From: Thermoplasmatota archaeon
GTDB taxonomy: Archaea > Thermoplasmatota > Penumbrarchaeia > Penumbrarchaeales > Penumbrarchaeaceae
Assembly (NCBI GenBank): GCA_965234725.1
Contig: CBDDUX010000053.1
Location: 1 to 14,434 of the forward strand
DNA: 14,434 bases
Reading direction: 5' to 3'
Each line of letters starts with the position of its first letter. Positions within the stretch are counted from its first letter, which is position 1. Both the position numbers and the translations under genes were made by a program. The notes beneath the pieces are model-generated. The model saw only the letters and a program-made list of their open reading frames with translations, was not told the DNA's origin and ran no database searches. Shown piece after piece: positions 1 through 14,434 of the stretch.

Positions 1-162
1 TCAAACCATATGGTGTCGTATAACTAAGGGTATGGTGTCGGGGACGGGGTTTGAAAGAATACTCAAAACTGTCAAAAATGATACTCAAAATGTAAGAATT
101 TCTTCTTGATGCCTTCAAGAGAGATCATAAGGAGCGATAGAAAAGGGCCCCTTCGGGGGCCT
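1..162 (+). repeat. Junction element J1 (TGTCG boxes + three-hairpin module)
   Basis: TATGGTGTCG occurs at 9-18 and 31-40 (22-bp period). GTGTCGGGGACGGGGTTT (35-52) is identical to 11625-11642, and ATGGTGTCGTATAACTA (10-26) is identical to 8099-8115. Stems: TTTGA/TCAAA (50-54/63-67), TCTTGA/TCAAGA (104-109/115-120) and GGCCCC-TTCG-GGGGCC (146-161). Confidence 0.75.
141..162 (-). terminator. Possible terminator function of the J1 terminal hairpin for ORF1
   Basis: On the minus strand the GC hairpin (161-146) is followed by CTTTTCT, ~50 nt after the ORF1 stop. It is also part of the repeat family, so this role is uncertain. Confidence 0.35.
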
Positions 163-211
163 ACATTTTCAACAAAGAATTGTTAAAACCATTCTTTCCC
201 GCTATCATAGA

Positions 212-3200
212 TTATAGGGTTCGATCCTGTATATCTGTACCTTCTAATTGGGATTTCTGAGGTGAGCCCAACTCCTGCTCAGATGGAGTAGATGGGATTT
301 TCTCCAATTCTAATTGGTCATTTTGAGAAGGTGGAGAATCGGATCCTTTCCTCTTTTTCAAAATGAGGAATACAACAATCCCGATTACTATCAGAATAAC
401 TAAAATGAGGATCACGATAATAACAAAAGGGAAACCTCCCTTGTCATCCTTCTTCTCTTTGATCAAAGGATCTGTCCCATCCTGATACTCTTGAAGATCG
501 GTCTTCCCGTCTCCATCAGCATCGTTATCTGCAGAAGGAGTTTTCGGATCCAGACCATGGCTGTCCTCCCAACCATCTGGCATCCCGTCATCATCGGTGT
601 CATCATTGAAGGGAAGGGTTCCATTCTTGTTTTCAAGTGCATTGGACATCCCGTCATTATCAGCATCGGCTTCTCCGTCAGATGGATCATCGATGGAGAG
701 GCCCCATTCGATCTCGATGAGGTCGGGGATGCCATCCGAATCGGTATCATGGTCTTGCGGAAGGACCTTCAGATTGAAAACAGTGGAATTGGTATTCCCT
801 TCTTCATCTGAGACAGTGACGGTTATCTCGTAATCTCCGGAAGAAGTCACGGTTCCCTTCAATTGGTTTCCATCAACACCGATCGGAGCTCCCTGCCATG
901 AATATGATACTATTCCAATATTGTCAGCTGCTGTGATCGTGACATCAACATCCTGTCCCTCATAGATCGTGATATCATCGATGGGTTCGATCTCCGGAAG
1001 AATAATATCTTCAATCTCCAGATTCAATATCTCGGTAATATTCTGGTTGTCACTTGAATCTTTCACAATAACATTGTAAAACAGAGGGCCAGCCTCATCA
1101 ATGGCTATAGATATCTCATGTGTGAAAATATTACTATCTGAAGAGAGAATTATCTTTTGATGAGTTGTGTTTGCGAACCAGTATTCGAGTTCCAGGTCAC
1201 TGATCTCGATATTATCCCAGACTTCAAAATAGAATTCGTAACTTCCACCTGTTTCCAGTTTTTGTGAATATCCTGTCAAATTAATCAAAGGAATAAAATT
1301 ATCTATTATAGTAATTTCACCAACATCTCCAGAAAACCAGTTCTGGGATGTATCTACAAACGAAATCTTATATGAAAGTGGAACTATGGATCTGAAAGGA
1401 AGTGCTACCTTCTTCCAGTATTCGTCATTCCCATTAAAGGTCATGGTAACATTTTTGTGCTCAGCATCCTCATACCAATATTCCAACATTGAAGACTCTA
1501 TCTCTACGTTGTCTGTTGCTCTAACTCTGATCTCAATGATCTCTCCGGTAGATCCTTGATCGGTGGACATATTCTCAAGGATCTTGGGTGACTCCATATC
1601 CAAAACGATCACTTGTCTGATCTTTGAGCTATTTTTATTGCCTGATGAGTCCGTTGAATGGAACATGTAGAACAGGGTTGAAAGGGAATCGCTTGGTAGA
1701 TCGATAGTGTAAGAATAGACTGTTCCTCCCATCAGTGAAATGTTTTGATGCTCACCATTGCCAAACCAGAATTCAAGATGAACACTTTCCACCTCTATGT
1801 TATCGATTATCTTAATCGAAATTGGGATTGAACTTCCGGTTGTTGAAGAATTGATTGGATTAATCTCAATAAATATTGGGAGATCATCATCCTTGACTGT
1901 GACTGTTTTCTCCATTGTCCTATTCCAATTACCAGATGTATCTACTGCAAGGAAAGAGTAATAAATTAACTCAATAGAACCTGACGGTATTGAAAGGCCA
2001 TAGGTCCAAGTGTCAGATGAAATCATATTCATTGTTAGATTACTTGATTCAGTAATCCCAAACCTATACTCTAAATGGACCTTTTCAACATCGATGTTGT
2101 CTAAAACCTGAACTTTAAAGAGAAATGAATTACCTGTTGATGCAATCGTTCCGGTCATATCATTAATAATTTTAGGACGATCGTAATCAAATATATCAAT
2201 CTCCATCTGCTCGGTTGTATTGGTGTTCAGATAAACATCCTGAGCCTCAAAGTAGTAGACCACTGATGAAAGGTCATGATGGATCAATAGGGATGTAGAC
2301 CAGTTGATATTATCTTCAGTCACTAGATCAATAGATCCGAACGAAGGAGATTCCTGTTTGAAAAATAACTTAACGGACATTAGTTTCACATCATCTGTTA
2401 CTGATGCATTGAGGACCAAGATCTCTCCGGTTCTTCCGTGTGTAATATTGCTGTAATAATCGTAGGTTGGTTTGATAGTGTCATCGGCGAGGTAAATATT
2501 ACTATGGTCTGATTCACCTATTAAATTTAAAGCTTTGACTGAATAATAGTATCTTGTTCCTATGGTTACATTTTGATCTATGAAGAAATTCACAGGATGA
2601 GAACTGTACTTCAGGGACATGCTGCCTATCGAGGTTCCTCTATAGATATCATATCCTATTATCTGAGAACCACCATTGGATATTGGCACCTTCCAACTCA
2701 GGTAGATACTATCGGATCTGACCGTAGCATTCAATCCGGTTGGAGAATCGGGAGGTGAATCTGATGTTATTTTGGTTACTCCCCAATCCTCCATCCCATT
2801 GAAGCTTGTATCATATGCTCCGGTAGTTGTAGGGTAACCTGTAGAATCAACTCTTCCGGTTGTGTAGACGAAATCGTTCGAATCCACAACGATTCCCTCT
2901 GAATAATCATTAGAGGTACCTCCAAGATATGTTGAAAACAATAATGATGAAGCATTTTTATCGAGTTTGAAAACCAATGAATCAGTCCCCCCAGAATTAA
3001 TAGAAAAATCTGAATCTTCTGACATCGGAAAATTGGTGGATTTAGTATATCCAGAAACCCAGATGTTACCCCTTGAATCGAAATCCAAATCACTTATTGT
3101 ATCTGACCCAGATCCTCCAATTAAAGTGGAGTATGATAATGAACCACCTGTAATATTCAAATTCGTAACGAAGCCATCTGAGTTACCCACTATTGAATTA

Positions 3201-4849
3201 CTATAAGCACCGGATGTAACTGGGAAATCGGTAGAAGAGGTATAACCAGCTACTGTAGCATTGTTATTAGTGTCCAGAGCAATACCTTGGATATAATCAG
3301 AAGAGCTTCCTCCGAGATAGGTGGAATATATCAATGAGGAACCAGCGGAGTTTATTTTGAAAATAAAACCGTCTTGACCATCATTCTTTGAGGTATCATA
3401 TGCTCCCAAAGTTGTTGGAAAATCTGATGATTTTGTATTACCTCCAACATATGCATTACCGGATGCATCCACAGCAATCTCATTACCAATATCAGTATCT
3501 GATCCACCAACCAAAGTAGAATAAGAGATAGCACCTGTACTTCTACTGATCTTCATTACGAATACATCACCTATTCCATCATAAGAGGTATCATAGGCAC
3601 CAGAACTTGTGTAGAAATCTTCAGAATATGTATATCCGGTGATATAAGCGGAACCTGACCCAAAAAGTTTGACTCCATTTGCATAATCGCTGCTCGTTCC
3701 TCCGATATATGAGGCATATGACAAGGCATTGCCTTTGGAGTTCAGAACCACAATGAAACCATCTGTTGTCCCTCCTATGCTAGTATCATTTGCACCTGAT
3801 GTCGTTGGGAAATCAGAGGATCTTGTATACCCTGCTACGTATGCATTTCCTGAGGAGTCAACATCAATACCATAGCCATATTCATTGCCGGTTCCACCAA
3901 TGTAAGTGGAATAATCAAGGGAATTACCAGAATAATTCAATTTAATGACAGCCACATCCTGACCGCCATTATGGCTTGTATCGTATGCACCAGAAGTGAT
4001 TGGAAATGCATTTGAACAAAAACCAGTTACGTAAGCATTCCCAAGAGAATCCACATGCATATCAAAAGAGCGGTCCCATGTGGTTCCACCCACAAAGGTG
4101 GAATATATCAATGGATCAATCACGATCTTCCTCGACTTGTCAAAATCACCAAGATCAAATGAATATCGATCTTCATTTATTCCAATGAACTTGCAATTAA
4201 TCGATTCCTCTATATCGTTTGAATAGAAAACGCGAAGATCATCTTCACAAATATCCGGTCCATTCTTAATCTGAATATTAATGAGGTCATCTTTTACCAC
4301 AAGATCATCGTGACCATCTACTTCGACAAGAATATCCCCTGGATCTGCACCTTGATTAATAATAAATTCATATTTCAGCTTTCCATCTGAACCTCTGAAA
4401 AGAAGGTCGATCCCTTCCCAAATATCCTCGTATAATACCTCTGAATAGCTCGGAATATCTATTGCCCATTTATCGGGATCGTCACCAATTAGAAAATTAG
4501 TATTTTTTGATATTACCTTCTGACCAACAGGTTCAACTCCATTTGCACCAATGAACGAATACTTGAGTACATGTCCTGAGCTTTGGTCCAAATTAATATC
4601 AAGAAAGAAAGAATCTTCAGATAGAGCGATCCTTCCAAATTCTGTGTTACTAATGAAAAAAATATGATCTTCCCATTGACCCTCGTTCTTAATAAAATGA
4701 TCGAAAGCCAAATTAAAGGGTTCGATAGCCCTACCACTATAGATGTAGGCATCTTCTAGGTCCGTGGTTGCACCTGTTTTAGAAATCTGGGTAGAACTAA
4801 TTACTATAATGATTAAGGCTACAAAGCTCATCTTGGAAGTATTATTCAT
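212..4849 (-). CDS. Large membrane-anchored cell-surface protein (1545 aa): SBBP beta-propeller repeats, fibronectin type III domain, ~6 Ig-like repeats, TSP3-like DxDxDG Ca-binding repeats, C-terminal TM helix
   Basis: N-terminal hydrophobic signal (MSFVALIIIVISS). The N-domain motifs FIKNEGQW, KYEFII..GADP and IDP are typical of SBBP-repeat proteins. Repeated 'YST(Y/F/L)(L/I/V)GG..D....I.VD..GNAYV.G.T.S.DFPTT.GAYD' units follow. The FN3 signature is PDSPTGL..IYLSW..GYDIYRG..YYYSVKA.N..GES. Later come DTDSDG/DADNDG/DTDDDG/DADGDG repeats, then TM FPFVIIVILILVILIVIGIVVFLIL followed by KKRK. Confidence 0.9.
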   Translation of the reverse strand: MNNTSKMSFVALIIIVISSTQISKTGATTDLEDAYIYSGRAIEPFNLAFDHFIKNEGQWEDHIFFISNTEFGRIALSEDSFFLDINLDQSSGHVLKYSFIGANGVEPVGQKVISKNTNFLIGDDPDKWAIDIPSYSEVLYEDIWEGIDLLFRGSDGKLKYEFIINQGADPGDILVEVDGHDDLVVKDDLINIQIKNGPDICEDDLRVFYSNDIEESINCKFIGINEDRYSFDLGDFDKSRKIVIDPLIYSTFVGGTTWDRSFDMHVDSLGNAYVTGFCSNAFPITSGAYDTSHNGGQDVAVIKLNYSGNSLDYSTYIGGTGNEYGYGIDVDSSGNAYVAGYTRSSDFPTTSGANDTSIGGTTDGFIVVLNSKGNALSYASYIGGTSSDYANGVKLFGSGSAYITGYTYSEDFYTSSGAYDTSYDGIGDVFVMKISRSTGAISYSTLVGGSDTDIGNEIAVDASGNAYVGGNTKSSDFPTTLGAYDTSKNDGQDGFIFKINSAGSSLIYSTYLGGSSSDYIQGIALDTNNNATVAGYTSSTDFPVTSGAYSNSIVGNSDGFVTNLNITGGSLSYSTLIGGSGSDTISDLDFDSRGNIWVSGYTKSTNFPMSEDSDFSINSGGTDSLVFKLDKNASSLLFSTYLGGTSNDYSEGIVVDSNDFVYTTGRVDSTGYPTTTGAYDTSFNGMEDWGVTKITSDSPPDSPTGLNATVRSDSIYLSWKVPISNGGSQIIGYDIYRGTSIGSMSLKYSSHPVNFFIDQNVTIGTRYYYSVKALNLIGESDHSNIYLADDTIKPTYDYYSNITHGRTGEILVLNASVTDDVKLMSVKLFFKQESPSFGSIDLVTEDNINWSTSLLIHHDLSSVVYYFEAQDVYLNTNTTEQMEIDIFDYDRPKIINDMTGTIASTGNSFLFKVQVLDNIDVEKVHLEYRFGITESSNLTMNMISSDTWTYGLSIPSGSIELIYYSFLAVDTSGNWNRTMEKTVTVKDDDLPIFIEINPINSSTTGSSIPISIKIIDNIEVESVHLEFWFGNGEHQNISLMGGTVYSYTIDLPSDSLSTLFYMFHSTDSSGNKNSSKIRQVIVLDMESPKILENMSTDQGSTGEIIEIRVRATDNVEIESSMLEYWYEDAEHKNVTMTFNGNDEYWKKVALPFRSIVPLSYKISFVDTSQNWFSGDVGEITIIDNFIPLINLTGYSQKLETGGSYEFYFEVWDNIEISDLELEYWFANTTHQKIILSSDSNIFTHEISIAIDEAGPLFYNVIVKDSSDNQNITEILNLEIEDIILPEIEPIDDITIYEGQDVDVTITAADNIGIVSYSWQGAPIGVDGNQLKGTVTSSGDYEITVTVSDEEGNTNSTVFNLKVLPQDHDTDSDGIPDLIEIEWGLSIDDPSDGEADADNDGMSNALENKNGTLPFNDDTDDDGMPDGWEDSHGLDPKTPSADNDADGDGKTDLQEYQDGTDPLIKEKKDDKGGFPFVIIVILILVILIVIGIVVFLILKKRKGSDSPPSQNDQLELEKIPSTPSEQELGSPQKSQLEGTDIQDRTL

Positions 4850-4856
4850 GAATGGA

Positions 4857-4910
4857 CCACCTGGGATAAGGGGATTTTTTCATTAGGTTGTTATCTATAT
4901 TAATTTTTTC
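4857..4910 (-). promoter_or_regulatory. Putative archaeal BRE/TATA promoter and ribosome-binding site of ORF1
   Basis: The minus strand reads GAAAAAA-TTAATATA (4910-4896), and AGGTGG (4862-4857) lies 7 nt before the ATG at 4849. Confidence 0.5.
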
Positions 4911-5031
4911 TCAGTTATTTCAGCAAAAATATCATTGATGAATAATTTATTTTCATTATTTGAAATTATTCCCATTTTAGATTACAACATAAAATACCTC
5001 TATGAAAGAGTGGAGATTCGGACCTATCTCC

Positions 5032-5211
5032 AAGTGTCGGAATGCAATAGATAAGTGTCGGAAACGGGGTTTATCTAGTTAAGTCAAATAACCTGGAAAA
5101 TGCCCCGAAAAACCCCTTTTCGAGAAAAGATTTCCGAGCGGATGACGGATGGAAACGGTCCGGACCAAGATGAAAAAGAAGCCCCTTTCAAATGTGTCGG
5201 AAGGGGCTTCA
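5032..5211 (+). repeat. Junction element J2; 158-nt copy (5054-5211) nearly identical to 11624-11779
   Basis: AAGTGTCGGAA occurs at 5032-5042 and 5053-5063 (21-bp period). Manual alignment with J4a shows 8 substitutions and 2 single-base indels in 158 nt. Stems: GGGGTTT/AAACCCC (5066-5072/5110-5116), TTTCC/GGAAA (5131-5135/5151-5155) around GGATGAC, and GAAGCCCCTT/AAGGGGCTTC (5178-5187/5201-5210). Confidence 0.9.
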
Positions 5212-5377
5212 ACATTTGAATATCTTTCATTATTCGTATGTATTGAACTACACAGTAATTTTTGATGTTATTTGAAGGCATATATCGATCGATTAGTGTC
5301 CAATTCAAATATGGATTCGTACTAAGGATGAGAAATGTCCATTGACCATCTTCGGAAAGCCAGTTTGCTAGTATCTT

Positions 5378-7915
5378 CTATGTTTGTGGTGCAAATGGAT
5401 TTTCCATTAATGGATAGTTATCTAGCCCTAGATGAGGCAATCCAATATCTCCGATTCCGTCTCCGGCGAATCGACCGTCAGCTCCATTATCAAGGCCTGA
5501 ATAATCATCCCAATAATTTCCCTCCCCCTGCCCGTCATCCCAATCATTGGCCATGTTTGAGATAGCCTGGATATTATTTCCAATGAAAGCGTTATGATGA
5601 ATATCATTCCCGGATGAATTGTCGATCTTTAGGCCAATTTCATTTTGACTCATTGCATTCATATTTATCGAGCATTCGTCGGAATAAAAGATCAATATTC
5701 CGGATTCATTATTATCCATACAACTATTTTTCCTGATGATACAATCATCCGAATCGCTCATCCTGATACCGACTCTGAAGGAAATACAGGTATTGAATAT
5801 GATCTGATTTTCCTTGGAGGAATATATCTCGATCCCGTAAAAGGAACCGTTGAAGCACAGATTATTCATTATACTATTATTCTCTGATTGATGCCCTACG
5901 AAAATGCCGCAGTTACTATTATTGCCGCAATAATTATCGAAAATTTCGTTGCCGGTCGATCCCTGGACCACTATGCCTCTTTCGTTTTCATTGCAAGTAT
6001 TTTTAACTATTTTGTTCCAAGAAGATGAAATGAAGATGTTGATCCCTCCCCCCCAATTGTTCATTACTTCATTCGAATTCAATTTATTGTTTGAACATCG
6101 ATCTCTCAACCATATCCCGTCCCCATTGTTCAGATTAATTGAATTCTTTGAAAGGATATTGAATGAGGACCTCTCCAATTTGATCCCTATTCCATCGAAA
6201 TTTGTACCGTACCCATTTCGATTGAACTGATTCTCCCTTAACAGATTGAGGTCAGCTTCATCCAGCCATATACCTTCATGATTGTCATTATACCGGTTGT
6301 TCGATAGAACATTATTTTTTGAATTTCGAATGATCATTCCTATCCATTCATTATTGGAGCAGCTGTTGTTCTTATAGGTGTTATTCGAGGAATCCCTGTT
6401 GATCATTCCCACCCTATTCTCCTGGATATTATTACCCTCTATTGAATTATGATCAGATATAACATCAACATTGATGCCGAAATATTGGTTTGATATTTGA
6501 TTACCGGTCAACGAGTTATCAACAGCTCTTTGCAGGTACATACCATTCCAGGTGTTGTTATCGATCATATTTCTTGTAATATCATTATTGGAGGACCCCT
6601 CCAGGAGTCCGATCCCTCCACCGTTGGTATTATTGCCGTTTTTATAAAATCCATTATTGTATATTGTATTCCAGGATGAGTTCCACAAATACAGCCCGAA
6701 CAGATGGTTCTTCTCGAAATGGTTCCTTTCGATCGTGATCCTATTCGAATGGATCAATCTCAGCCCATTTCCAAGAGGAGAAGAAAATGAAGAGTTCAGA
6801 ACACTCACATTTTCGGAAAATGCGATGATGGTTTCCGTTTTCAATTCAACAGAATCGATCATAAAATCAAATGAGCTAGCTACAATAAGTTGTCCGATGT
6901 CTTTTAAAATTTCCATGTTTTCCTGGTTGGATATGTAATGAATTGGTTTTGATATCACAGTGTTGGTCATATCCATTGAATGGGAATCGTAATGCTCCCT
7001 GATATCTCCATTTAAAATGATTCCAACACCACCAAAGGTATTGTTCACTAGAATGGATCTGCAGCAGGAATCAAGTTCCAATCCGGTTCCTATAAATTGA
7101 TTGTTTTCGAAGCTGATATCATCGGAATCTGTTATCACCACTCCCTCCCATCTTTGTGATTTGATCCGGTTGGAGGAGATCTCCATGTTCGTGGAACTTT
7201 CGATGTTGAGATCTGTTAATCCCTGCTGAGCAAAGGTGTTGTTCTCAATTTTCGTACCTGTAACATCTCTGATACTTATACCTTGATAATTCTCTTCTAA
7301 ATGGTTTGAATTTATCCTTACAATAGAGGATTCAACGGATTGTATCCCGATCTGAGAGTTCAATGAGATATCGTTACGGATCACTTCAATGTCCGACGAT
7401 CTGCCCTCAATGAAGATCCCGTTCCCTCCATTTTCAATGATCTCGTTTTCAATGATACTAACTGAAGAAGATCTCCTGATGATTATTCCCATTCCCTGAT
7501 TAGATCTGATGACATTTCGAGAAATGATCGCGTTGCTGACATTTTCAAATATCATCCCTGCTTCGTCGTAGTAATCATTCGGCGGCCATATCATATCTTG
7601 AAACATGGGGATAGAAGCGTTCTTGAACGTACAATTTCTGATCATGAAATGGGCATTCGTATCTTTCACGAGAATACAATATCTGCTCTCTTGAGGATCA
7701 GCAACAATATCCTCGATGATAAAAGGGTCCTCACTTGTGCCTGTGCCATCTGATATACCATTTTTAGAAATGAAATCTGAGTTGCTAGAAATTATAATGG
7801 GGATCTTGATATCGATCTCTTCTTTCTTTTCGTCACTACTTCGACTAATACATCCAGCAATGGAAACGAAAAGCAATAATGCTGCTGTTAGTGATACTGC
7901 TGCCTTTCTATTCAT
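5378..7915 (-). CDS. Putative lipoprotein with long right-handed parallel beta-helix (NosD/CASH/PbH1-like repeats)
   Basis: The ORF track gives 5378-7942, but the second ATG (7915, MNRKAAVSLTAALLLFVSIAGC) gives a classic basic-hydrophobic-lipobox (IAG-C) signal. Many 'GI.I..S.N..I..N.I..N' repeats follow. It also has GTGTSEDPFII near the N-terminus and a C-terminal NDWDDG..EGNYWDDY.G.D...DGIGD......DNYPL motif typical of archaeal NosD-domain surface proteins. Confidence 0.85.
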   Translation of the reverse strand: MNRKAAVSLTAALLLFVSIAGCISRSSDEKKEEIDIKIPIIISSNSDFISKNGISDGTGTSEDPFIIEDIVADPQESRYCILVKDTNAHFMIRNCTFKNASIPMFQDMIWPPNDYYDEAGMIFENVSNAIISRNVIRSNQGMGIIIRRSSSVSIIENEIIENGGNGIFIEGRSSDIEVIRNDISLNSQIGIQSVESSIVRINSNHLEENYQGISIRDVTGTKIENNTFAQQGLTDLNIESSTNMEISSNRIKSQRWEGVVITDSDDISFENNQFIGTGLELDSCCRSILVNNTFGGVGIILNGDIREHYDSHSMDMTNTVISKPIHYISNQENMEILKDIGQLIVASSFDFMIDSVELKTETIIAFSENVSVLNSSFSSPLGNGLRLIHSNRITIERNHFEKNHLFGLYLWNSSWNTIYNNGFYKNGNNTNGGGIGLLEGSSNNDITRNMIDNNTWNGMYLQRAVDNSLTGNQISNQYFGINVDVISDHNSIEGNNIQENRVGMINRDSSNNTYKNNSCSNNEWIGMIIRNSKNNVLSNNRYNDNHEGIWLDEADLNLLRENQFNRNGYGTNFDGIGIKLERSSFNILSKNSINLNNGDGIWLRDRCSNNKLNSNEVMNNWGGGINIFISSSWNKIVKNTCNENERGIVVQGSTGNEIFDNYCGNNSNCGIFVGHQSENNSIMNNLCFNGSFYGIEIYSSKENQIIFNTCISFRVGIRMSDSDDCIIRKNSCMDNNESGILIFYSDECSINMNAMSQNEIGLKIDNSSGNDIHHNAFIGNNIQAISNMANDWDDGQGEGNYWDDYSGLDNGADGRFAGDGIGDIGLPHLGLDNYPLMENPFAPQT

Positions 7916-8059
7916 ACTCGACTTCCATATATCAATGATCATGAAGAATTAATAATACTTTGGTACAGGAGTGTAACAAAGTTGATCTTCGTTTGTTTTT
8001 ACTAGTATTTTTTAAAGGCCTGGACTGAATAAATTGATTGACTCTGACCTGTTTGACTC

Positions 8060-8238
8060 TGTCGCGTTCTAACCCTGTTATGTCGGAAAACTAGGGTAAT
8101 GGTGTCGTATAACTACCCCAAATTTGGAAGATCAGGGTTTGTTTCCTTCCTCAAAGCTCAATAAAAACCCATAAAAATATTGAATATTGATTGGATGCCA
8201 ATATTCAGAGCTACAGGGGAAGGACCTCTTCGGAGGTC
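8060..8238 (+). repeat. Junction element J3 between the divergent ORF2 and ORF3
   Basis: TGTCG occurs at 8060, 8081 and 8103 (21/22-bp period), with a 17-nt identity to J1. Stems: GGGTTT/AAACCC (8135-8140/8165-8170), TGAATATTG/CAATATTCA (8181-8189/8199-8207) with loop ATTGGATGC, and GACCTC-TTCG-GAGGTC (8223-8238). Confidence 0.7.
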
Positions 8239-8330
8239 AAATTTTTTATTTCTTTATTTAGGATTTGGTAGAATTATTTAAAGAGAAGTCATTTAGACAT
8301 CTGTTCCATATACTATATTTAAATAAGAGA

Positions 8331-8346
8331 AAATGTCATTTATATA
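8331..8346 (+). promoter_or_regulatory. Putative TATA box for ORF3
   Basis: TTTATATA at 8339-8346 follows an A-rich stretch and lies ~43 nt upstream of ATG 8389. Confidence 0.4.
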
Positions 8347-8388
8347 TGTGGTTTGAAAAAACCAAGCATAAGTGTGGGATGGGATAAT

Positions 8389-11300
8389 ATGGGATTTAAG
8401 AATTATGTGAAAATATTAATCGTGGTCCTACTTGTAGCTATCGCATTTTCGCCCATGCTAATGGACATGGGGGCAGATGCAGAGGAAACAAGAGCCCCGA
8501 ATTATTACGGCCATATCACTTCCGATGCAGTCTGGAGTGGTATCAAATGGTTCGATGACGTGATAATCGATCCCGGAGTAACCGTGACTGTCAATAGCGG
8601 GACTGTACTCCACCATTACAGCGGCTCCTACCTGTGGGTGCAGGGAACCATGATAGTGAAGGGAAAGGAAGGGAACCCCGTAATGTTCGGGGATGAGGAC
8701 AGTATCAATACATGGGACGGTATAACTGTAAACGAAACCGGCCTGGTGGATTTCGATAACTTCACCATCCAAAAGGTTCACGACTCATATGATGTCCTCA
8801 CCCTACTTGGGCAGCCCAGTAGGGTCAAGAATGGTATGATAATCGGAGGATATAACGGGATCGCTACGGGCATTTCCGCCGGAGGGCATCAAATCGAGGG
8901 CATAAGATTCATCGGTCAGAATTCCATAGGAATGGTCTTTCGGGAGAATGTCGATGATATGATCGTGTCGAATGTTTCGATAATGAATGTCAAATGGGGG
9001 GCCATCGTAACCTCATCAAGCCAGAATATCACAATCAAAAATGCGGTCACAGATGGCGGATATTACGGATATGCTGCAACCGGAGATCCCAGTACACCGG
9101 GAAGAAACATCACCTTCATCAACTGCGTTCTCAACAACAGAAGCGCAGTCGGACCAACGAACGGGTTCTGGATGGAAAATAATATAGACAATATCCATGT
9201 CATTGGCGGAAGAGTGGAAAATTGCGCCCATGGGGTTTACTTCAACTGCTACGGTAACGCAGGGATCAAATTCGAGGATTTCAGCACCTCGAATACCGTC
9301 GATGATGCGATATATGGCTTTTCTACGGGTGAGTTCTCAGCTTCGTTCGTGAACTGCGATCTGGGGTCCTCCGTGAATACCGCAAATATGACTGCTGTGT
9401 CTCCTCAAAGGGTCGAGCTGATCAACACCTCCTACACCGAATTGTCTAATTTCGATCTATTCGGCGATTGCATCGTCAACATCAGCTATTTCACGAATGT
9501 CGAGGTCCTGAACGGAAACGGGGATCCCGCGGACGTGAACCTCGAGATCTATCCATGGGGACTCGGTAATGTATTCGATGACCGGCTGGCGGACGGATGG
9601 CTCGATAAATATCAGCTCCAAAGCGTAGTGATAGACGAGACGGATAGGTACAAGATCCTTCACGATTTCAGAGCGAAATCCGTTCTTCCTTCCGAATCCG
9701 AGGTTGAAATGAATGAGGTATGGATAACGGGATACGGCACCATCAGCCTGTTTATGGACCTGGCCCCGTACAACAACTTCTCCACAGAGATCGAATTTCA
9801 GGAGGATGACAAGTTCGATATCGGACTTTACGATTACTTCGTCGATCCGGAAGGAGAGGATTTCACATGGGATATTTCAACCGGACCGGAACTCGTTCAC
9901 CATCTGATCCAGGCTCAGAAGACACTCAGATTGGAATCTGCGGAGGTAAACTGGTTCGGGACCAGCTGGGTGTACATCAACGCAACCGACGCGGGAGGTA
10001 ATTGGACTGATGTGAACGCCACCGTAACCGTTACATCCGTGAATGATCCACCTGCCCTAGTCCAGAACCTTCCGGAGCTTACCACACCGGAGGATACGCC
10101 GGTATGGCTCAACTTCTCCGGAAGGGCCGAAGATGATGATGGAGATTCCCTGACCTGGAGCGCCGAAGAGATCGAAAACTGCATGCTGTCATGGGACGAA
10201 TCCGGGTTGAACCTCACTGTCACACCCGATGAGAACTGGTTCGGGATCCTTGAGATCCCGGTAAAGGTCTCGGACGGAACGGTGAACCCCGAATGGATCC
10301 TGACAGTGAACGTCACACCGGTAAACGACATGCCAATGGTGAAGGTCCTATGGTCAAACGGAACCGAAGCGGAGCAGGTTGAATACGCCTGGAACGAGAC
10401 AACCAACATCACCGTGTGGGAGATCGATACAAAGGAGGACGTCCCGATCGAGTTCGGATTCTACTACGACGACGTGGAGACGGATGAACCCGCTTCCATC
10501 CTCATATACAGCGATCTTATGCACGGAGCCTTAGATCTCACGGTCTATCAGCGGGAGGAGATCGTGAACGAGACAACCAACGAGACCGCAATGGTGGATT
10601 ACACCATTACCTCAAACTACACCTATACTCCGGATGCGGACGACTTCGCAGGGGATCTGATCCAGTTCAACATATCTGACGGAGTGGGGGAGGTTACCCT
10701 CTGGATCTGGTTCAACGTGAAGTCATTGAATGACAGACCCGTCTTCAATGCTCCCGACGAGTGGAACGTCAGCGTCGAGATCGACAACGAGACGGTAATA
10801 GATATCGGCACCTGGATATCCGACGTGGACGGAAACGTCCTGTCCATATCCGTTGATCCCGATGAATTCATAACCATCAACGGAACACAGCTCGAGATCC
10901 TCTACAACGATACATTCGAGGGGGATCACCAAAATGTTACCGTGACCATATCGGACGGTGTCCTGACCGCCGGAGCGGTCCTCCTAATCAACGTAACAAG
11001 AGGGGAGGGACCAGGTCCAGGTCCTGAGGGCGAATTCAATGTCACCCATCCCGAGGTGAAATCCACTGAGGACGGATGGACGATCACCGTGGAAGGTGAG
11101 GAAGGACAGAGCATCTACCTCGCCGTTGTGGATGATGACGGACCGGGGACATTTTTTGAGATGGACTACGAGGACGGAAAGTACATTGTTACCGTCGATA
11201 AAGACGATGCCGATGAGGGATTTGACTACTACTTCACAGACGAGGACGGGGGGGATCAGCTCCTTGACGGAGGGTCACTGCCCTCGCTCAAGAAGGAGGA

Positions 11301-11424
11301 GGAGAAGGACGAGCCTTTCCCGTGGTGGATAGTTGCGATGGTCCTCGCGATCCTCCTCATCGGTGTGATCATCCTCCTGTTCATCGTAATGAGTGCGGGC
11401 AAACCCGATATGGACGAGGAGTGA
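8389..11424 (+). CDS. Membrane-anchored surface protein: N-terminal parallel beta-helix, cadherin/tandem-95-like Ig repeats, C-terminal TM
   Basis: The ORF track starts at TTG 8353, but ATG 8389 (MGFKNYVKILIVVLLVAIAFSPML) gives a better signal peptide. Beta-helix motifs include IIDPGVTVTV..G, G.EGNPV.F and WDGI. Cadherin-like linkers include VTVTSVNDPP, VNVTPVNDMP, VKSLNDRPVF, T.ED and D.DGD.L. The TM FPWWIVAMVLAILLIGVIILLFIVM precedes a short acidic end (DMDEE*). Confidence 0.88.
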   Translation: MGFKNYVKILIVVLLVAIAFSPMLMDMGADAEETRAPNYYGHITSDAVWSGIKWFDDVIIDPGVTVTVNSGTVLHHYSGSYLWVQGTMIVKGKEGNPVMFGDEDSINTWDGITVNETGLVDFDNFTIQKVHDSYDVLTLLGQPSRVKNGMIIGGYNGIATGISAGGHQIEGIRFIGQNSIGMVFRENVDDMIVSNVSIMNVKWGAIVTSSSQNITIKNAVTDGGYYGYAATGDPSTPGRNITFINCVLNNRSAVGPTNGFWMENNIDNIHVIGGRVENCAHGVYFNCYGNAGIKFEDFSTSNTVDDAIYGFSTGEFSASFVNCDLGSSVNTANMTAVSPQRVELINTSYTELSNFDLFGDCIVNISYFTNVEVLNGNGDPADVNLEIYPWGLGNVFDDRLADGWLDKYQLQSVVIDETDRYKILHDFRAKSVLPSESEVEMNEVWITGYGTISLFMDLAPYNNFSTEIEFQEDDKFDIGLYDYFVDPEGEDFTWDISTGPELVHHLIQAQKTLRLESAEVNWFGTSWVYINATDAGGNWTDVNATVTVTSVNDPPALVQNLPELTTPEDTPVWLNFSGRAEDDDGDSLTWSAEEIENCMLSWDESGLNLTVTPDENWFGILEIPVKVSDGTVNPEWILTVNVTPVNDMPMVKVLWSNGTEAEQVEYAWNETTNITVWEIDTKEDVPIEFGFYYDDVETDEPASILIYSDLMHGALDLTVYQREEIVNETTNETAMVDYTITSNYTYTPDADDFAGDLIQFNISDGVGEVTLWIWFNVKSLNDRPVFNAPDEWNVSVEIDNETVIDIGTWISDVDGNVLSISVDPDEFITINGTQLEILYNDTFEGDHQNVTVTISDGVLTAGAVLLINVTRGEGPGPGPEGEFNVTHPEVKSTEDGWTITVEGEEGQSIYLAVVDDDGPGTFFEMDYEDGKYIVTVDKDDADEGFDYYFTDEDGGDQLLDGGSLPSLKKEEEKDEPFPWWIVAMVLAILLIGVIILLFIVMSAGKPDMDEE

Positions 11425-11562
11425 TCGTTTCGGAAGAGGAAGCCAGGGATTGAAGAAGAAAAATCTGAAAAAGAGACTTCACCTGAGGATACAGGTCAAT
11501 CAGAGGATGAAAAACAAGCATACGAGAAGCTCTATGATTCAAATTTAGATGACGTGTTCTAG
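11425..11562 (+). pseudogene. Orphan 45-codon cytoplasmic-tail-like reading frame, in frame with and directly after the ORF3 TGA
   Basis: It translates as SFRKRKPGIEEEKSEKETSPEDTGQSEDEKQAYEKLYDSNLDDVF* (TAG 11560-11562) and has no start codon. An RKRK stop-transfer cluster plus acidic tail resembles the post-TM tail of ORF1 (KKRKGSDS...). Confidence 0.55.
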
Positions 11563-11623
11563 TTCCGAACATTTCACCTAAAAATAGCGAAATAATATGC
11601 AATAAATACCATAAAAATAAAAG

Positions 11624-11779
11624 AGTGTCGGGGACGGGGTTTATCTAGTTAAGTCAAATAACCTGGAAAATGCTTCGAAAAACCCCTTTTCGAGAAAAGA
11701 TTTCCGAGCGGATGACGGATGGAAACGGTCCGTACCGAGATATAAAGAAGCCCCTTTCAATGCGTCGGAAGGGGCTTCA
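11624..11779 (+). repeat. Junction element J4a; direct repeat of 5054-5211
   Basis: About 94% identical to J2 by manual alignment, offset 6570 bp, same orientation. Terminal stem GAAGCCCCTT/AAGGGGCTTC at 11747-11756/11769-11778. Confidence 0.9.
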
Positions 11780-11809
11780 CTCATTTTTTCAGTTAATTTG
11801 TGACTTTAG

Positions 11810-11895
11810 AAACTGTAAAAAATGAAATGATCTCTTTTGGATGTCTTCAAGAGAAATCCAAATACATATCAGAAAAAGGCAAGGTTTCGGGGTCC
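11810..11895 (+). repeat. Junction element J4b; diverged copy of the J1 downstream module, tandem to J4a
   Basis: AAACTGTAAAAAATGA (11810-11825) matches AAACTGTCAAAAATGA (66-81) at 15/16. GATGTCTTCAAGAGAAATC matches GATGCCTTCAAGAGAGATC at 17/19, followed by the same 12-nt spacing to AGAAAA(A/G)GGC and then TTCGGGG. The stem TCTCTT/AAGAGA (11831-11836/11849-11854) is present, but the last hairpin is degenerate. Confidence 0.65.
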
Positions 11896-11917
11896 ATAAT
11901 TGTTCTAATTAAACACA

Positions 11918-11997
11918 GATAAATTTATTAACCATAGAAATGAAGTAGGACAAAGATTAATTATTATCCTCATGTTGAAATTTCTGAAACAGGGTGA
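11918..11997 (+). promoter_or_regulatory. Putative BRE/TATA and ribosome-binding site of ORF4
   Basis: GATAAA-TTTATTAA at 11918-11931, and GGTGA at 11993-11997 just upstream of ATG 12002. Confidence 0.45.
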
Positions 11998-12001
11998 ACA
12001 T

Positions 12002-14434
12002 ATGAAGAAATTACACATTTTGGTTATTGGAATGATATCTATTTTCTATTTGTCTGTTCTTACAATTTTTCCTTTGTATTCCGCTGAGATTACTTCAAGA
12101 CATTCTGGAGACATTGCTGATGCAACATATGGTTCTAACTCGGTAACTATCGATGGAACCATTACCACTGGAGAATGGAATGACGCAAATACTATCAACT
12201 TGGTCAGCGGAGGTGACTCTCTAACGATTTATATCAAGGAGAATGGAATGGATCTCTATGTTGGTTATCAATGTACATCGAAATTCATTTGCGATATTTA
12301 TCTTGATGTCGACAACAATGGTGGAACAACTCCTCAAACTGACGACTTCAGACTCCATGCATCCTACATGGTTTATGAAATGTCAGGGACAGGTTCAGGT
12401 TGGAATAATGGGATCAATCCTGTTGGGTGGTCTTCCACCATCGGTCACACAATGGAAAGAGAATTTCAAATATCCTATGACAAGATCGGTATTACAGCAG
12501 GTGAAGATAAAACAATTGGTATTGCTTTTGTCGTCATGTCTGAATCGGCGACATTCTACTGGCCCACTGGTTATACAAGAGATAATCCAACCACATGGGG
12601 AGATCTGACATCATCAGATTGGTGGACCACGGAAAAACCTACTCAAAATAATCCTCCCGTTCTTTCCGATAACAATGCCTCTCCCACTTGGGGAACCACA
12701 GAGATCGAATATACTTTTTCAGTTGAATACAGCGACAGTGATAATGATCAGCCCACCATTAGTTCAGTCTTCATTGATGATGTTGAAAGAATAATGACAA
12801 CTGGAGATACAACTTACGATGATGGAAGTGTTTTCACATTAACTACCAGTCTTCTCGAAGGGGACCACAATTATCATTTCCTGTTCAACGATTCCGAAGA
12901 AGAGGTGAGGTTCCCTGAAACCGAAGATTTTTCCGGCCCTACCATTGTGCTTCCAAATGAAGCTCCAGATCTCGATGAGGGGGGAATTCCAAATGGTACC
13001 TTTTTTATCGATGAGGATACCGGACAGGGAAATAATCTGGTTGACCTTGAAACCTATTTTTCTGATGACAGGGATGATGGATATCTTCTATTCGAGATTG
13101 TTTATCAAGAGAATTCCCTGAAACTCAATGGAGACATTGATGGGAATTATTTGGATATTGAACAGATTGAAGAGAATTGGTTCGGAACAATGACCTTCCA
13201 AGTAAAAGCAACTGACAAGGGAATCGATGGTATCAGTGGGACCATTGATGATGCATCCACGATCAGCAATTTATTCGAGATCTCGGTTAATGGAACCAAT
13301 GATATTCCATCAATTTTATCAATAGGTCCCAGAGATGCAGCAGAAGGGGAGATCGTAGAATTTGTAGGCCTTTCCTCGGCACAAGAGGATAGATGGTTCA
13401 ATCTCACTATTACTGCAACTGATATTGATATTGAAACCGGTGGAGATGATGAACTGGTTTTTTGGGTTAATTCCACCCTGTTTTCATTGGTGGAAGATCC
13501 TTATGATCCATTCATCGCCAACCTTTCTTTCCTGCCCACAAATATTGATGTGGGGACACATCATATTCAGGTTGGTGTTGAGGATCTTTCAGGAAATAAT
13601 GATACTGTTGATGTGGTCATTGAAGTTGAGAATATAAATGACGACCCATTCATAGAAAGCATCAACCTAAATGGGTTAAATATTGATGTTACAGAAGAAA
13701 CAATAACTTTTTCTGACACGATCTTTGCCGAAGAAGATAAATGGTTCAATTTCTCGGTTATCGCAAAAGATGATGATCAAAGTATCAGGGAACCAGATGA
13801 ACTTGAATATTCGATAAATATCTCCAATCCCAATTTGCAGATCGATAAATTGACCGGAAACATCTCCTTTTTACCCACTCAAGATGATGTGGGTTTCCAT
13901 TACCTGAATATCTCTGTAATGGATAGTTTCGATATGGACCCAGATGATCATATACATGTGATCATCGAGGTCAGGAATACAAATGATCCTCCTTCTCAAC
14001 CATTGGCCACCTTTGAAACAGGGGGTGAAAATATAATGGAAGGGGATTACCTGAACATGACAGCCTTTTCTTCTGATATTGATATGGAATATGATCCCGA
14101 TGAATCGCTTTATTTCACATGGGTGTCAGATATAGATGGTGTTCTTGGATCTGGTAACACGATACAGGTCAATACTCTCTCCTTGGGATCACATAATATT
14201 ACATTGACGGTAACAGATCATTATGGTGCAGGTTCCTATATCAAATTCAATGTGAACGTTTCAGCACTTCCCGTTATCAACGATACCATTCCTGACGATG
14301 ATGAGGTCTTGGAGGATAAAACAGAGAAAAGTCCATCGATATTTGGTTTCATAATTATTATCGCTGCTGTTGTTTTGATATTGATAGGTGGAAAGGTCCA
14401 ACACATCGTTTACCCTAAAAGGCTCAACACATCG
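12002..14434 (+). CDS. Secreted/membrane-anchored surface protein (partial, runs off window): N-terminal DOMON/CBM9-like domain, then cadherin/Ig/PKD-like repeats and a C-terminal hydrophobic segment
   Basis: It is absent from the ORF track, presumably because no stop codon is reached before the window end. I translated both ends by hand in the same frame and spot-read motifs in between. The N-terminus reads MKKLHILVIGMISIFYLSVLTIFPLYSAE...VTIDGTITTGEWNDA...LYVG...DIYLDVDNNGG...EREFQISYDKIG. Internal linkers include NNPPVL, VNGTNDIP, VENINDDP and VRNTNDPP. The end reads ...SPSIFGFIIIIAAVVLILIGGKVQHIVYPKRLNTS. An alternative in-frame ATG is at 11972. Confidence 0.85.
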   Translation, partial: MKKLHILVIGMISIFYLSVLTIFPLYSAEITSRHSGDIADATYGSNSVTIDGTITTGEWNDANTINLVSGGDSLTIYIKENGMDLYVGYQCTSKFICDIYLDVDNNGGTTPQTDDFRLHASYMVYEMSGTGSGWNNGINPVGWSSTIGHTMEREFQISYDKIGITAGEDKTIGIAFVVMSESATFYWPTGYTRDNPTTWGDLTSSDWWTTEKPTQNNPPVLSDNNASPTWGTTEIEYTFSVEYSDSDNDQPTISSVFIDDVERIMTTGDTTYDDGSVFTLTTSLLEGDHNYHFLFNDSEEEVRFPETEDFSGPTIVLPNEAPDLDEGGIPNGTFFIDEDTGQGNNLVDLETYFSDDRDDGYLLFEIVYQENSLKLNGDIDGNYLDIEQIEENWFGTMTFQVKATDKGIDGISGTIDDASTISNLFEISVNGTNDIPSILSIGPRDAAEGEIVEFVGLSSAQEDRWFNLTITATDIDIETGGDDELVFWVNSTLFSLVEDPYDPFIANLSFLPTNIDVGTHHIQVGVEDLSGNNDTVDVVIEVENINDDPFIESINLNGLNIDVTEETITFSDTIFAEEDKWFNFSVIAKDDDQSIREPDELEYSINISNPNLQIDKLTGNISFLPTQDDVGFHYLNISVMDSFDMDPDDHIHVIIEVRNTNDPPSQPLATFETGGENIMEGDYLNMTAFSSDIDMEYDPDESLYFTWVSDIDGVLGSGNTIQVNTLSLGSHNITLTVTDHYGAGSYIKFNVNVSALPVINDTIPDDDEVLEDKTEKSPSIFGFIIIIAAVVLILIGGKVQHIVYPKRLNTS
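14389..14434. mobile_element. Probable terminus of an IS481-family-like insertion sequence interrupting the 3' end of ORF4
   Basis: The sequence is TGGAAAGGTCCAACACATCGTTTAC-CCTAAAAGGCTCAACACATCG. It starts with TG and contains AAAGG(TC/CT)CAACACATCG twice (14392-14408, 14418-14434; 15/17 identical, 26-bp period). The ACATCG(T/G)TTAC motif ~14 nt in from a TG end resembles IS481-type ends as I recall them. The ORF4 hydrophobic helix stops abruptly here. No transposase is visible. Confidence 0.5.

Follow-up and report, generated by a model that had tools for sequence, protein, structure and literature searches.

What kind of system sets large genes of different families one after another between related non-coding elements that all face the same way? 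The question is raised by a 14,434-nt stretch of DNA from a Thermoplasmatota archaeon (contig CBDDUX010000053.1; hereafter the window), in which four such junction elements, J1 to J4 from left to right, bound the genes. The initial annotation described one large gene per interval on strands -,-,+,+, and this is what is found, the open reading frames (ORFs) encoding 1545, 854, 1023 and >821 amino acids; it went on to suggest an undescribed archaeal integron-like array. With moderate confidence, we read the junction elements as attachment (att)-type sites of integrase-less cassettes that were inserted by site-specific recombination at the 3′ end of a tRNA-Met(CAU) gene.

As had been proposed, related elements occupy all four boundaries, each on the + strand. 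J2 (5046-5187) and J4 (11616-11757) are 89% identical across 142 nt, the 18-mer GTGTCGGRRACGGGGTTT occurs three times in the window (at 35, 5055 and 11625; 0.01 expected), on the + strand each time, and GTGTCG occurs eight times, always on the + strand and in seven of the eight cases within a junction (shuffled mean 3.5; eight reached in 3 of 200 shuffles). Covariance-model scores of the A-type copies, given below, agree with this relationship. A four-way alignment of the junctions returned the order of parts originally described, namely one or more TGTCG boxes, a core ending in GGGGTTT, a hairpin with a GATGCC or GATGAC loop, an A-rich linker, and a GC hairpin with a T-run after it. After the core comes a conserved module of 120-170 nt in place of a tRNA body, which is of type A in J1, in J3 (divergent) and in a remnant at 11810-11900, and of type B in J2 and J4. 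The "GGGTTT-started stem" of the initial annotation is present, but it is a fragment of a tRNA T-arm and acceptor, and its pairing is convincing only in type B.

The core, GTGTCGGGGACGGGGTTT(GAA), corresponds in reverse complement to the 3′ terminus of a Thermoplasmatota tRNA-Met(CAU) gene that contains an intron. A scan of a genome collection (596 Gb) with the 18-mer returned at least 80 loci, sampled only within 10 kb of exact matches and with one genome per species; about 49 of the loci listed are bacterial matches in unrelated sequence, which is roughly the chance estimate for 596 Gb. Thirty-one archaeal loci were examined, three of which overlap as parts of the same contig, CAWEDU010000013.1 (a fourth part, L031, was excluded). 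In 23 of the 31, the 18-mer, read in reverse complement, forms the 3′ end of a tRNA gene with anticodon CAT and an intron after position 39 (ARAGORN with the intron option, -i), spanning the end of the T-loop, the 3′ strands of the T-stem and acceptor stem, the discriminator A and the first C of CCA. ARAGORN without this option overlooked the tRNA in nearly all loci, and the Rfam tRNA model confirms all three of the tRNAs checked. The tRNA may be elongator tRNA-Met or tRNA-Ile2, which the sequence with its CAT anticodon does not separate. The remaining eight loci (six contigs), like the window, have a module or other non-tRNA sequence after the 18-mer, and additional TGTCG boxes upstream of cores are shorter copies of the same tRNA terminus, some of them being TGGTGTCG, the complement of CGACACCA. 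Within the window no tRNA gene was detected by ARAGORN, also with the intron option, and Rfam 15 at E ≤ 10 gave only sub-threshold chance matches (a Tetrahymena snoRNA, and PyrR on the wrong strand).

One gene per site, and a core complementary to a tRNA 3′ end including CCA, could be taken to mean that the elements are canonical attC or pdif sites or that the core is the primer-binding site of a retroelement, but we regard this as extremely improbable. An attC site is an imperfect palindrome, R′′(RYYYAAC)...R′(GTTRRRY), that forms one bulged hairpin. The six R′′/R′ pattern matches in the window all lie outside the junctions, which fold into several hairpins and separate genes on both strands. 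pdif sites are 28-bp XerC/XerD-type sites that alternate in orientation around a module, whereas every core here is tRNA-derived and co-oriented. In line with this, the earlier statement that the sites match neither consensus holds. No IntI, Xer, reverse transcriptase or long terminal repeat (LTR) was found in the window or in the array loci described below, where reverse transcriptase domains were sought in Pfam scans; the long direct repeats of the window are modules and gene-internal repeats, none of LTR type.

The four junctions, all read on the + strand, differ in how much of the core they retain. J1 opens with an upstream region (1-34) that holds a partial core box, TGGTGTCG, at 11-18, complementary to the tRNA 3′ terminus including CCA, and TCAAACC at 1-7 may be a decayed inverted T-arm fragment. 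The J1 core (35-55; 21 nt) is the reverse complement of the tRNA-Met(CAU) 3′ end with no mismatches and has TGG before it. Its type A module (56-176; 145.7 bits) contains two direct repeats of ACTCAAAA(C), a GATGCC-loop hairpin at about 98-128 and a GC hairpin at 146-161 with an A-run and a T-run at its sides, terminator-like on both strands. J2 has a partial core box and core at 5034-5072, of which the box, GTGTCGGAAT, occupies 5034-5043 and the core, GTGTCGGAAACGGGGTTT, 5055-5072, with two changes relative to the tRNA sequence. In the type B module that follows (5073-5217; profile score 188.8 bits), an AAACCCC is able to pair with the GGGGTTT of the core, and a GGATGAC-loop hairpin precedes a terminal GC hairpin (5177-5210) with a further core-like TGTCGGAAGGGGCTT within its loop and 3′ arm. 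The core region of J3 (8060-8141) has TGTCG boxes at 8060-8064, 8081-8085 and 8103-8107, the last inside TGGTGTCG, and its core is split into GTGTCG (8102-8107) and, after an insertion of 26 nt, AGGGTTTG (8134-8141). The divergent A-type module of J3 (8122-8250; 66.6 bits, E = 4.8e-13) has a GGATGCC-loop hairpin and a GC hairpin at 8223-8238 followed by a T-run, and the 16-nt TGGTGTCGTATAACTA is common to J1 and J3. J4 consists of two modules in tandem: J4a (11625-11788; profile score 184.6 bits), in which the exact 18-mer core (11625-11642) is followed by a type B module with a terminal hairpin at 11747-11778 and a T-run, and J4b (11810-11900; profile E = 2.8e-08), a coreless type A remnant that covers profile positions 37-138. 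The covariance model, built from 14 A-type copies with J1 and J3 among them, scores a composite of the J4 core and this remnant at 52.1 bits.

The 3′ arm and loop of the terminal hairpin in both B modules (5192-5210 and 11761-11778) hold a second direct core-like sequence, TGTCGGAAGGGGCTTC (compare TGTCGGAAACGGGGTTT), so that each B module is bracketed by two core-like sites. The AT-rich stretch before the J4 core (11528-11624, + strand) matches 1117-1005 of locus L011 at 75.7% and 9744-9834 of locus L020 at 77.2%, and its retention over about 90 nt upstream of cores in two relatives points to a shared cassette end. Some cassettes share sequence on either side of the core, the AT-rich stretch following a surface-protein C-terminal tail at each of these three places (in L011, at 1005-1117).

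A BLASTN comparison of the whole window with all 80 loci listed matched the junction elements only, at 75-89% identity, and none of the genes. The window modules recur in six contigs from other metagenome-assembled genomes (MAGs) while the intervening genes differ. Type A was found by profile and covariance model in L011, L026, L060 and nine times in CAWEDU010000013.1, and type B in L026, L051, L060 and CAWEDU010000013.1; the initial annotation had asked whether matches cluster in arrays with one gene per interval, and they do form co-oriented arrays, with one or two genes per interval. Some type A copies form a long subtype with about 50 nt of additional sequence containing two hairpins, whose stems differ among copies but still pair. 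A third type, C, which does not occur in the window, lies directly downstream of the tRNA gene in four relatives and ends in an inverted T-arm-like sequence and a small hairpin before the next core. Copies of type C are located at L069 9741-10000, L051 464-718 (- strand), L030 17562-17740 and L056 10025-10231 (- strand). Its features include a long stem with covariation, in which GGTTGAGCATTT/AAATGCTCAACC pair with CCTTGAGCATTT/AAATGCTCAAGG, the sequence GCTCAGGTTGAGC, which resembles a D-arm, and an end, GGTTCAAACCCCTACGTCAC, that resembles an inverted T-arm and acceptor and is interrupted by about 70 nt in L069 and L051. Type C is not called a tRNA by Rfam or ARAGORN, and may be a degenerate or non-canonical tRNA-like element. 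Across types A, B and C, the cassette-borne arm measures 120-230 nt. At the Rfam gathering threshold, the ten array loci returned tRNA only; types A and B had no match in phage and plasmid collections searched in distant mode, and an open-access literature search on archaeal integron-like tRNA cassettes and Thermoplasmata tRNA islands returned no description of these modules. One of the contigs, L026 (WJMJ01000040.1, 4797 nt), is labelled Promethearchaeota and holds four modules and a toxin-antitoxin cassette at about 85% DNA identity to copies in Thermoplasmatota MAGs; either mis-binning or transfer between phyla would account for the label.

The conservation of modules beside different cargo also bears on whether the elements are simply terminators or regulatory sequences that were duplicated along with paralogous surface-protein genes by homologous recombination, with no site-specific system involved. 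Downstream of genes 1, 2 and 3 there are indeed GC hairpins that are terminator-like on both strands, the terminal hairpins in general having an A-run before and a T-run after them, and surface-protein genes of relatives share C-terminal tails and 3′ flanks. We nevertheless consider such an origin very unlikely, as the four cargo genes are of different families, the modules are conserved across species beside unrelated cargo that includes toxin-antitoxin pairs, J3 sits between the starts of two genes, a place that calls for no terminator, and exact copies of a tRNA 3′ end are left unexplained.

In relatives, arrays of modules abut the tRNA gene itself. In CAWEDU010000013.1, cores are located at 371, 2038, 3434, 4435, 5769, 8064, 10001, 12167, 17562 and 17742 (coordinates of piece L030), all on the + strand, with a further decayed copy upstream (L066 7778). 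The first nine differ from the tRNA 21-mer by 4, 1, 3, 2, 6, 2, 2, 0 and 6 mismatches, and the last matches 19 of 19 bases before the contig ends and starts the tRNA gene there; mismatches are higher far from the tRNA and zero beside it. This array of about ten co-oriented modules occupies the whole interval between an acetyl-CoA carboxylase gene, on its left, and the tRNA gene. The same interval in another species (L069) contains one ORF and an insert of about 190 nt bounded by two cores. Each interval of the CAWEDU010000013.1 array holds one or two genes, on both strands, and the cargo comprises ParE with DUF7557, two AbiEi/AbiEii pairs, DUF2202, genes of unknown function and a DUF7948/SBBP/He_PIG surface protein. 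The suggestion that such an array stockpiles adhesin and surface genes is too narrow, the cargo of relatives including toxin-antitoxin pairs and small genes of unknown function as well. Within this array, identity between modules is 57-78%, as low as between copies from different genomes, which argues against recent local duplication. In this contig the acetyl-CoA carboxylase is spread over five ORFs (L066 1301-7643), compared with a single 2108-aa ORF in L069, and the DUF7948/SBBP gene (L030 12309-14852) is also in pieces; the split ORFs suggest frameshift errors in the assembly, and the intactness of the cargo genes of this contig can therefore not be judged.

Movement of a cassette as a unit is indicated by a gene pair that occurs in three MAGs, at L026 483-1884, L060 8525-9926 and L051 791-2192 (- strand). 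The pair encodes a 204-aa protein resembling a winged helix-turn-helix and a 282-aa protein resembling a nucleotidyltransferase (motif GSRDVDLGFH), with 83-90% protein and about 85% DNA identity between copies. It has no match in Pfam, NCBIfam or PHROGs. The pair was considered as the recombinase and rejected, since it aligns as a winged helix-turn-helix and a nucleotidyltransferase with an AbiEii-like motif; judged from these alignments, it is probably a divergent AbiE-type toxin-antitoxin system. DNA homology of the cassette begins about 60 nt inside a B module and ends just short of the next module, which is of type A in L026 and L060, and C followed by B in L051. Homology limits that coincide with modules, together with different modules on the far side, imply that module and genes moved as one unit into different surroundings.

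Gene order between relatives likewise breaks at modules, in agreement with the expectation of the initial annotation. One MAG has tRNA-C-SLFN-B remnant-Glucodextran_B (L056) and SNF2-DUF488-B-toxin-antitoxin-C-B (L051), and a second has carboxylase-ORF-C-tRNA (L069) and SNF2-Glucodextran_B-B-toxin-antitoxin-A-PAS kinase (L060), the two differing by rearrangement with breakpoints at modules. This difference in order around tRNA-Met, Glucodextran_B and SNF2-SWIM-PRiA4_ORF3 fits recombination between module copies at different loci.

These observations can be set against an unlikely alternative, in which the modules are small non-autonomous mobile elements, either of the miniature inverted-repeat transposable element (MITE) kind or IS200/IS605 palindrome-associated, that inserted strand-specifically into an already variable island without carrying genes. 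At 140-250 nt, co-oriented, with subterminal hairpins and a fold on one strand, the modules have much of the appearance of such elements, strand-biased insertion is known for single-strand transposons, and coreless or partial copies occur (window 11810-11900; L026 4595-4721; L051 2302-2419). The likeness to IS200/IS605 and MITE derivatives as short, hairpin-rich, strand-specific, co-oriented non-coding repeats ends, however, at the 5′ end of the module, which reproduces a tRNA 3′ end exactly, and it is this tRNA that the arrays adjoin. There are no terminal inverted repeats (best end-to-end complementarity 6-7 of 25), no transposase was found nearby in the array loci, and the shared toxin-antitoxin cassette starts inside one module and stops before the next, so that modules travelled with their cargo.

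Several points weigh against insertion at tRNA-Met as the origin of the junctions, one of them concerning the enzyme. As the initial annotation had noted, no integrase, transposase or other recombinase was found in the window (Pfam). It had also asked whether arrays lie near a tyrosine or serine recombinase or a transposase: no recombinase was found among the 85 ORFs of the array loci by Pfam, nor among 17 unannotated ORFs by NCBIfam and PHROGs, and none among 146 ORFs within 6 kb of the tRNA at 20 other loci (E ≤ 1e-10; 146 of 152 ORFs searched, four long ORFs and two overlapping the tRNA having been dropped), although divergent recombinases could escape the Pfam, NCBIfam and PHROGs profiles. 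The integrase gene that tRNA-targeting elements carry was accordingly not found in the window or in any array locus. A 356-aa ORF beside the tRNA in L069 and a 344-aa ORF in a CAWEDU010000013.1 cassette were compared as a possible shared enzyme and are unrelated (E = 5.1); the former resembles a membrane protein. Neither an excision junction nor an empty site was seen in the sequences examined. The module clusters of L051 and L060 do not adjoin a tRNA gene within the DNA examined, the link of the window to a tRNA gene is drawn by analogy, its source genome not being among the loci, and sampling within 10 kb of an exact 18-mer in one genome per species would let scattered copies, or a recombinase farther off, escape.

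The structural evidence has points on both sides, the covariation itself speaking for the reading. Covariation was counted for two A-type helices, the ATGCC-loop hairpin and the terminal GC hairpin, set by hand and realigned with the covariance model. Pairing was found in 81.8% of cells, compared with 68.1% in shuffled alignments (reached in 0 of 500) and 36-57% with the partners slid, and both sides change in 12 of 14 pairs, counts that come from a structure-fitted alignment and are biased towards structure. RNAalifold on a MAFFT alignment of the 14 A copies gave no consensus structure, because of one-column register shifts between copies, and on nine B copies it gave long-range pairing in which only 1 of 18 pairs covaries and which is not relied on. 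Compensatory changes in hairpins are, moreover, unusual for protein-binding att arms.

The frequent U-G pairs among the A-type helices imply a fold that works on the + strand only. Folding z-scores for J1 to J4 are -3.3, -2.8, -1.3 and -3.2 on the + strand and -1.5, -1.0, -1.2 and -1.6 on the - strand, and the folds contain three or four separate hairpins per junction. Such features would also suit genes for + strand small RNAs, in which a 5′ segment antisense to the 3′ end of tRNA-Met would be followed by a scaffold and a terminator; the RNAs would target the tRNA or its gene, or direct a recombinase to it, and the array would be a by-product. Besides the strand-specific folding and U-G pairs, the GC hairpin and T-run at the 3′ end, the 18-21 nt perfectly complementary to the tRNA 3′ end (with TGG opposite CCA in J1 and J3) and the layout of guide followed by scaffold are in keeping with this, yet it strikes us as quite unlikely: no promoter was recognised and conservation is lacking upstream of the core, the modules belong to no Rfam family and have no linked gene for a partner protein, and identity with a tRNA is expected of any tRNA-targeted att site. 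A scan of the window for sigma-70 promoters, a consensus that does not apply to archaea, was discarded, the 40 found being at chance level (40.6 expected). Within the att-site reading, the module may function as single-stranded DNA in folded form, as an RNA whose 5′ end resembles a guide, as a duplex bound by protein, or simply as an arm with a terminator.

Elements that integrate into tRNA genes restore the tRNA upon integration, with the newcomer placed beside it and older units outward. In our preferred reading of the junctions as att-type sites, a circular cassette consisting of core, arm and one or two genes would recombine with the core at the tRNA gene, the 18-21-nt core being the presumed crossover site that restores the tRNA after insertion, and the recombinase would act in trans. 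Each newcomer would enter beside the tRNA and shift older cassettes outward, giving a co-oriented array with decaying distal cores, and the tRNA gene of the present locus would be expected past the right end of the window (>14434). Direct repeats of part of the target tRNA are present in the window as the cores at 35 and 11625 (exact 18-mer), 5055 (off by 2 nt) and J3 (split), and an intact tRNA lies at the end of the island in the relatives L069, L056 and CAWEDU010000013.1 (where 19 nt of the gene are present before the contig end), the window itself having none.

Tandem integration at tRNA genes, with older elements pushed outward and partial tRNAs left behind, has been described for tycheposons (10.1101/2020.12.28.424599), and tandem integration and integrase loss for integrated elements of archaea (PMC8371274). 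The present arrays share with the tycheposon islands of Prochlorococcus and the archaeal tandem elements direct repeats that copy a tRNA 3′ end, a tRNA left intact on one side (in relatives), successive insertions into a single site, outward decay, variable cargo, and an integrase that is often absent from old units. They differ in that every unit has a standardised non-coding module of 120-230 nt, of three types, after the core, that units consist of one or two genes (0.5-6.5 kb), that no integrase or fragment of one occurs in about 30 units, and that the module hairpins covary strand-specifically. On the att-site reading, units flanked by att sites, lacking a recombinase of their own, accumulating in tandem and presumably moved in trans are also found here, as among the streptococcal cis-mobilisable elements; those are bacterial, with a helper that is known and adjacent, and have no standardised structured module. 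In streptococci, such integrase-less elements accrete beside integrative conjugative elements.

Integron cassette arrays, built from attI, attC and IntI, include ones reported in archaeal MAGs. The integron comparison made in the initial annotation stands in part: the elements behave as cassette boundaries, they form co-oriented arrays of up to about ten modules, and the cargo turns over, but the core is a tRNA-Met 3′ end and the nearest known kind of system is tandem integration at tRNA genes. As in integrons, co-oriented sites bound one or two genes, architecture is kept over sequence, the fold is on one strand, and a fixed chromosomal entry site is combined with cassette-borne folded sites, toxin-antitoxin cassettes and newest-looking sites nearest the anchor. 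Unlike integrons, the anchor is a tRNA gene and not an attI beside intI, with no IntI in the window or array loci, the core is an 18-21-nt tRNA copy in place of GTTRRRY and is followed by several hairpins, and the genes, of up to 4.6 kb, lie on both strands in the window and in CAWEDU010000013.1. The features that define an integron, with intI, attI and Pc at the head, attC sites and mostly promoterless, co-oriented cassette genes, were not found here. The arrays are best seen as a variant of tRNA-targeted tandem integration and not as a categorically new system. A bolder proposal, which we hold only tentatively, is that some Thermoplasmatota possess a tRNA-anchored cassette platform in which the tRNA-Met 3′ end would serve as attI, the folded module as attC, and an unrecognised recombinase encoded elsewhere would shuffle genes, from toxin-antitoxin pairs to multi-kb surface proteins, between species; in such a platform the module would possibly work as folded single-stranded DNA or as a guide-like RNA.

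The cargo of the window itself is in large part as first described, that is, exported surface proteins of different families, with surface domains in genes 1 to 3 and hydrophobic N-termini in all four, but gene 4 has only a sub-threshold match. Gene 1 (212-4849, - strand; 1545 aa) encodes a surface protein with DUF7948, SBBP beta-propeller, fn3 and PKD domains (Pfam), a signal-like N-terminus and, at the other end, a membrane anchor; diverged repeats of 195 nt (65 aa), arranged in series at 2808-4113, presumably represent tandem immunoglobulin (Ig)-like domains. Gene 2 (5378-7942, - strand; 854 aa) encodes a NosD/right-handed beta-helix protein (Pfam) with a signal-like N-terminus. Gene 3 (8353-11563, + strand) encodes a Big_9/cadherin-like surface protein (Pfam) of 1023 aa to an in-frame TGA at 11422-11424, which ends the ORF 8353-11424; a further 46 codons are open to a TAG at 11561-11563 and encode a charged tail like those that follow the membrane anchor in gene 1 and in the surface proteins of relatives. 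The TGA may be a recent nonsense mutation or a stop that is read through. Gene 4 (11972-14434, + strand) runs off the window and encodes an exported protein of >821 aa whose N-terminus is signal-like and which has a membrane segment close to the end of the window, its sole Pfam match being Ig-like and below the cut-off (22.2 bits against 27.8). C-terminal membrane anchors are present in genes 1, 3 and 4, and the GC content differs as had been claimed, at 0.39, 0.39, 0.51 and 0.40 for genes 1 to 4.

Even on the ordinary reading of these loci, tandem insertion at a tRNA gene explains why assemblies break there and why gene order differs there between close relatives. The sites are uniform enough for covariance-model searches, which offers a handle on the missing recombinase through co-occurrence. 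If the proposal is right, the arrays would provide naturally occurring short recombination sites whose chromosomal target is defined, and a second, independent case of integron-like gene capture to compare with the bacterial system. It would also mean that these uncultivated archaea diversify their cell surface and their toxin-antitoxin repertoire by means of single-gene cassettes at one tRNA gene.

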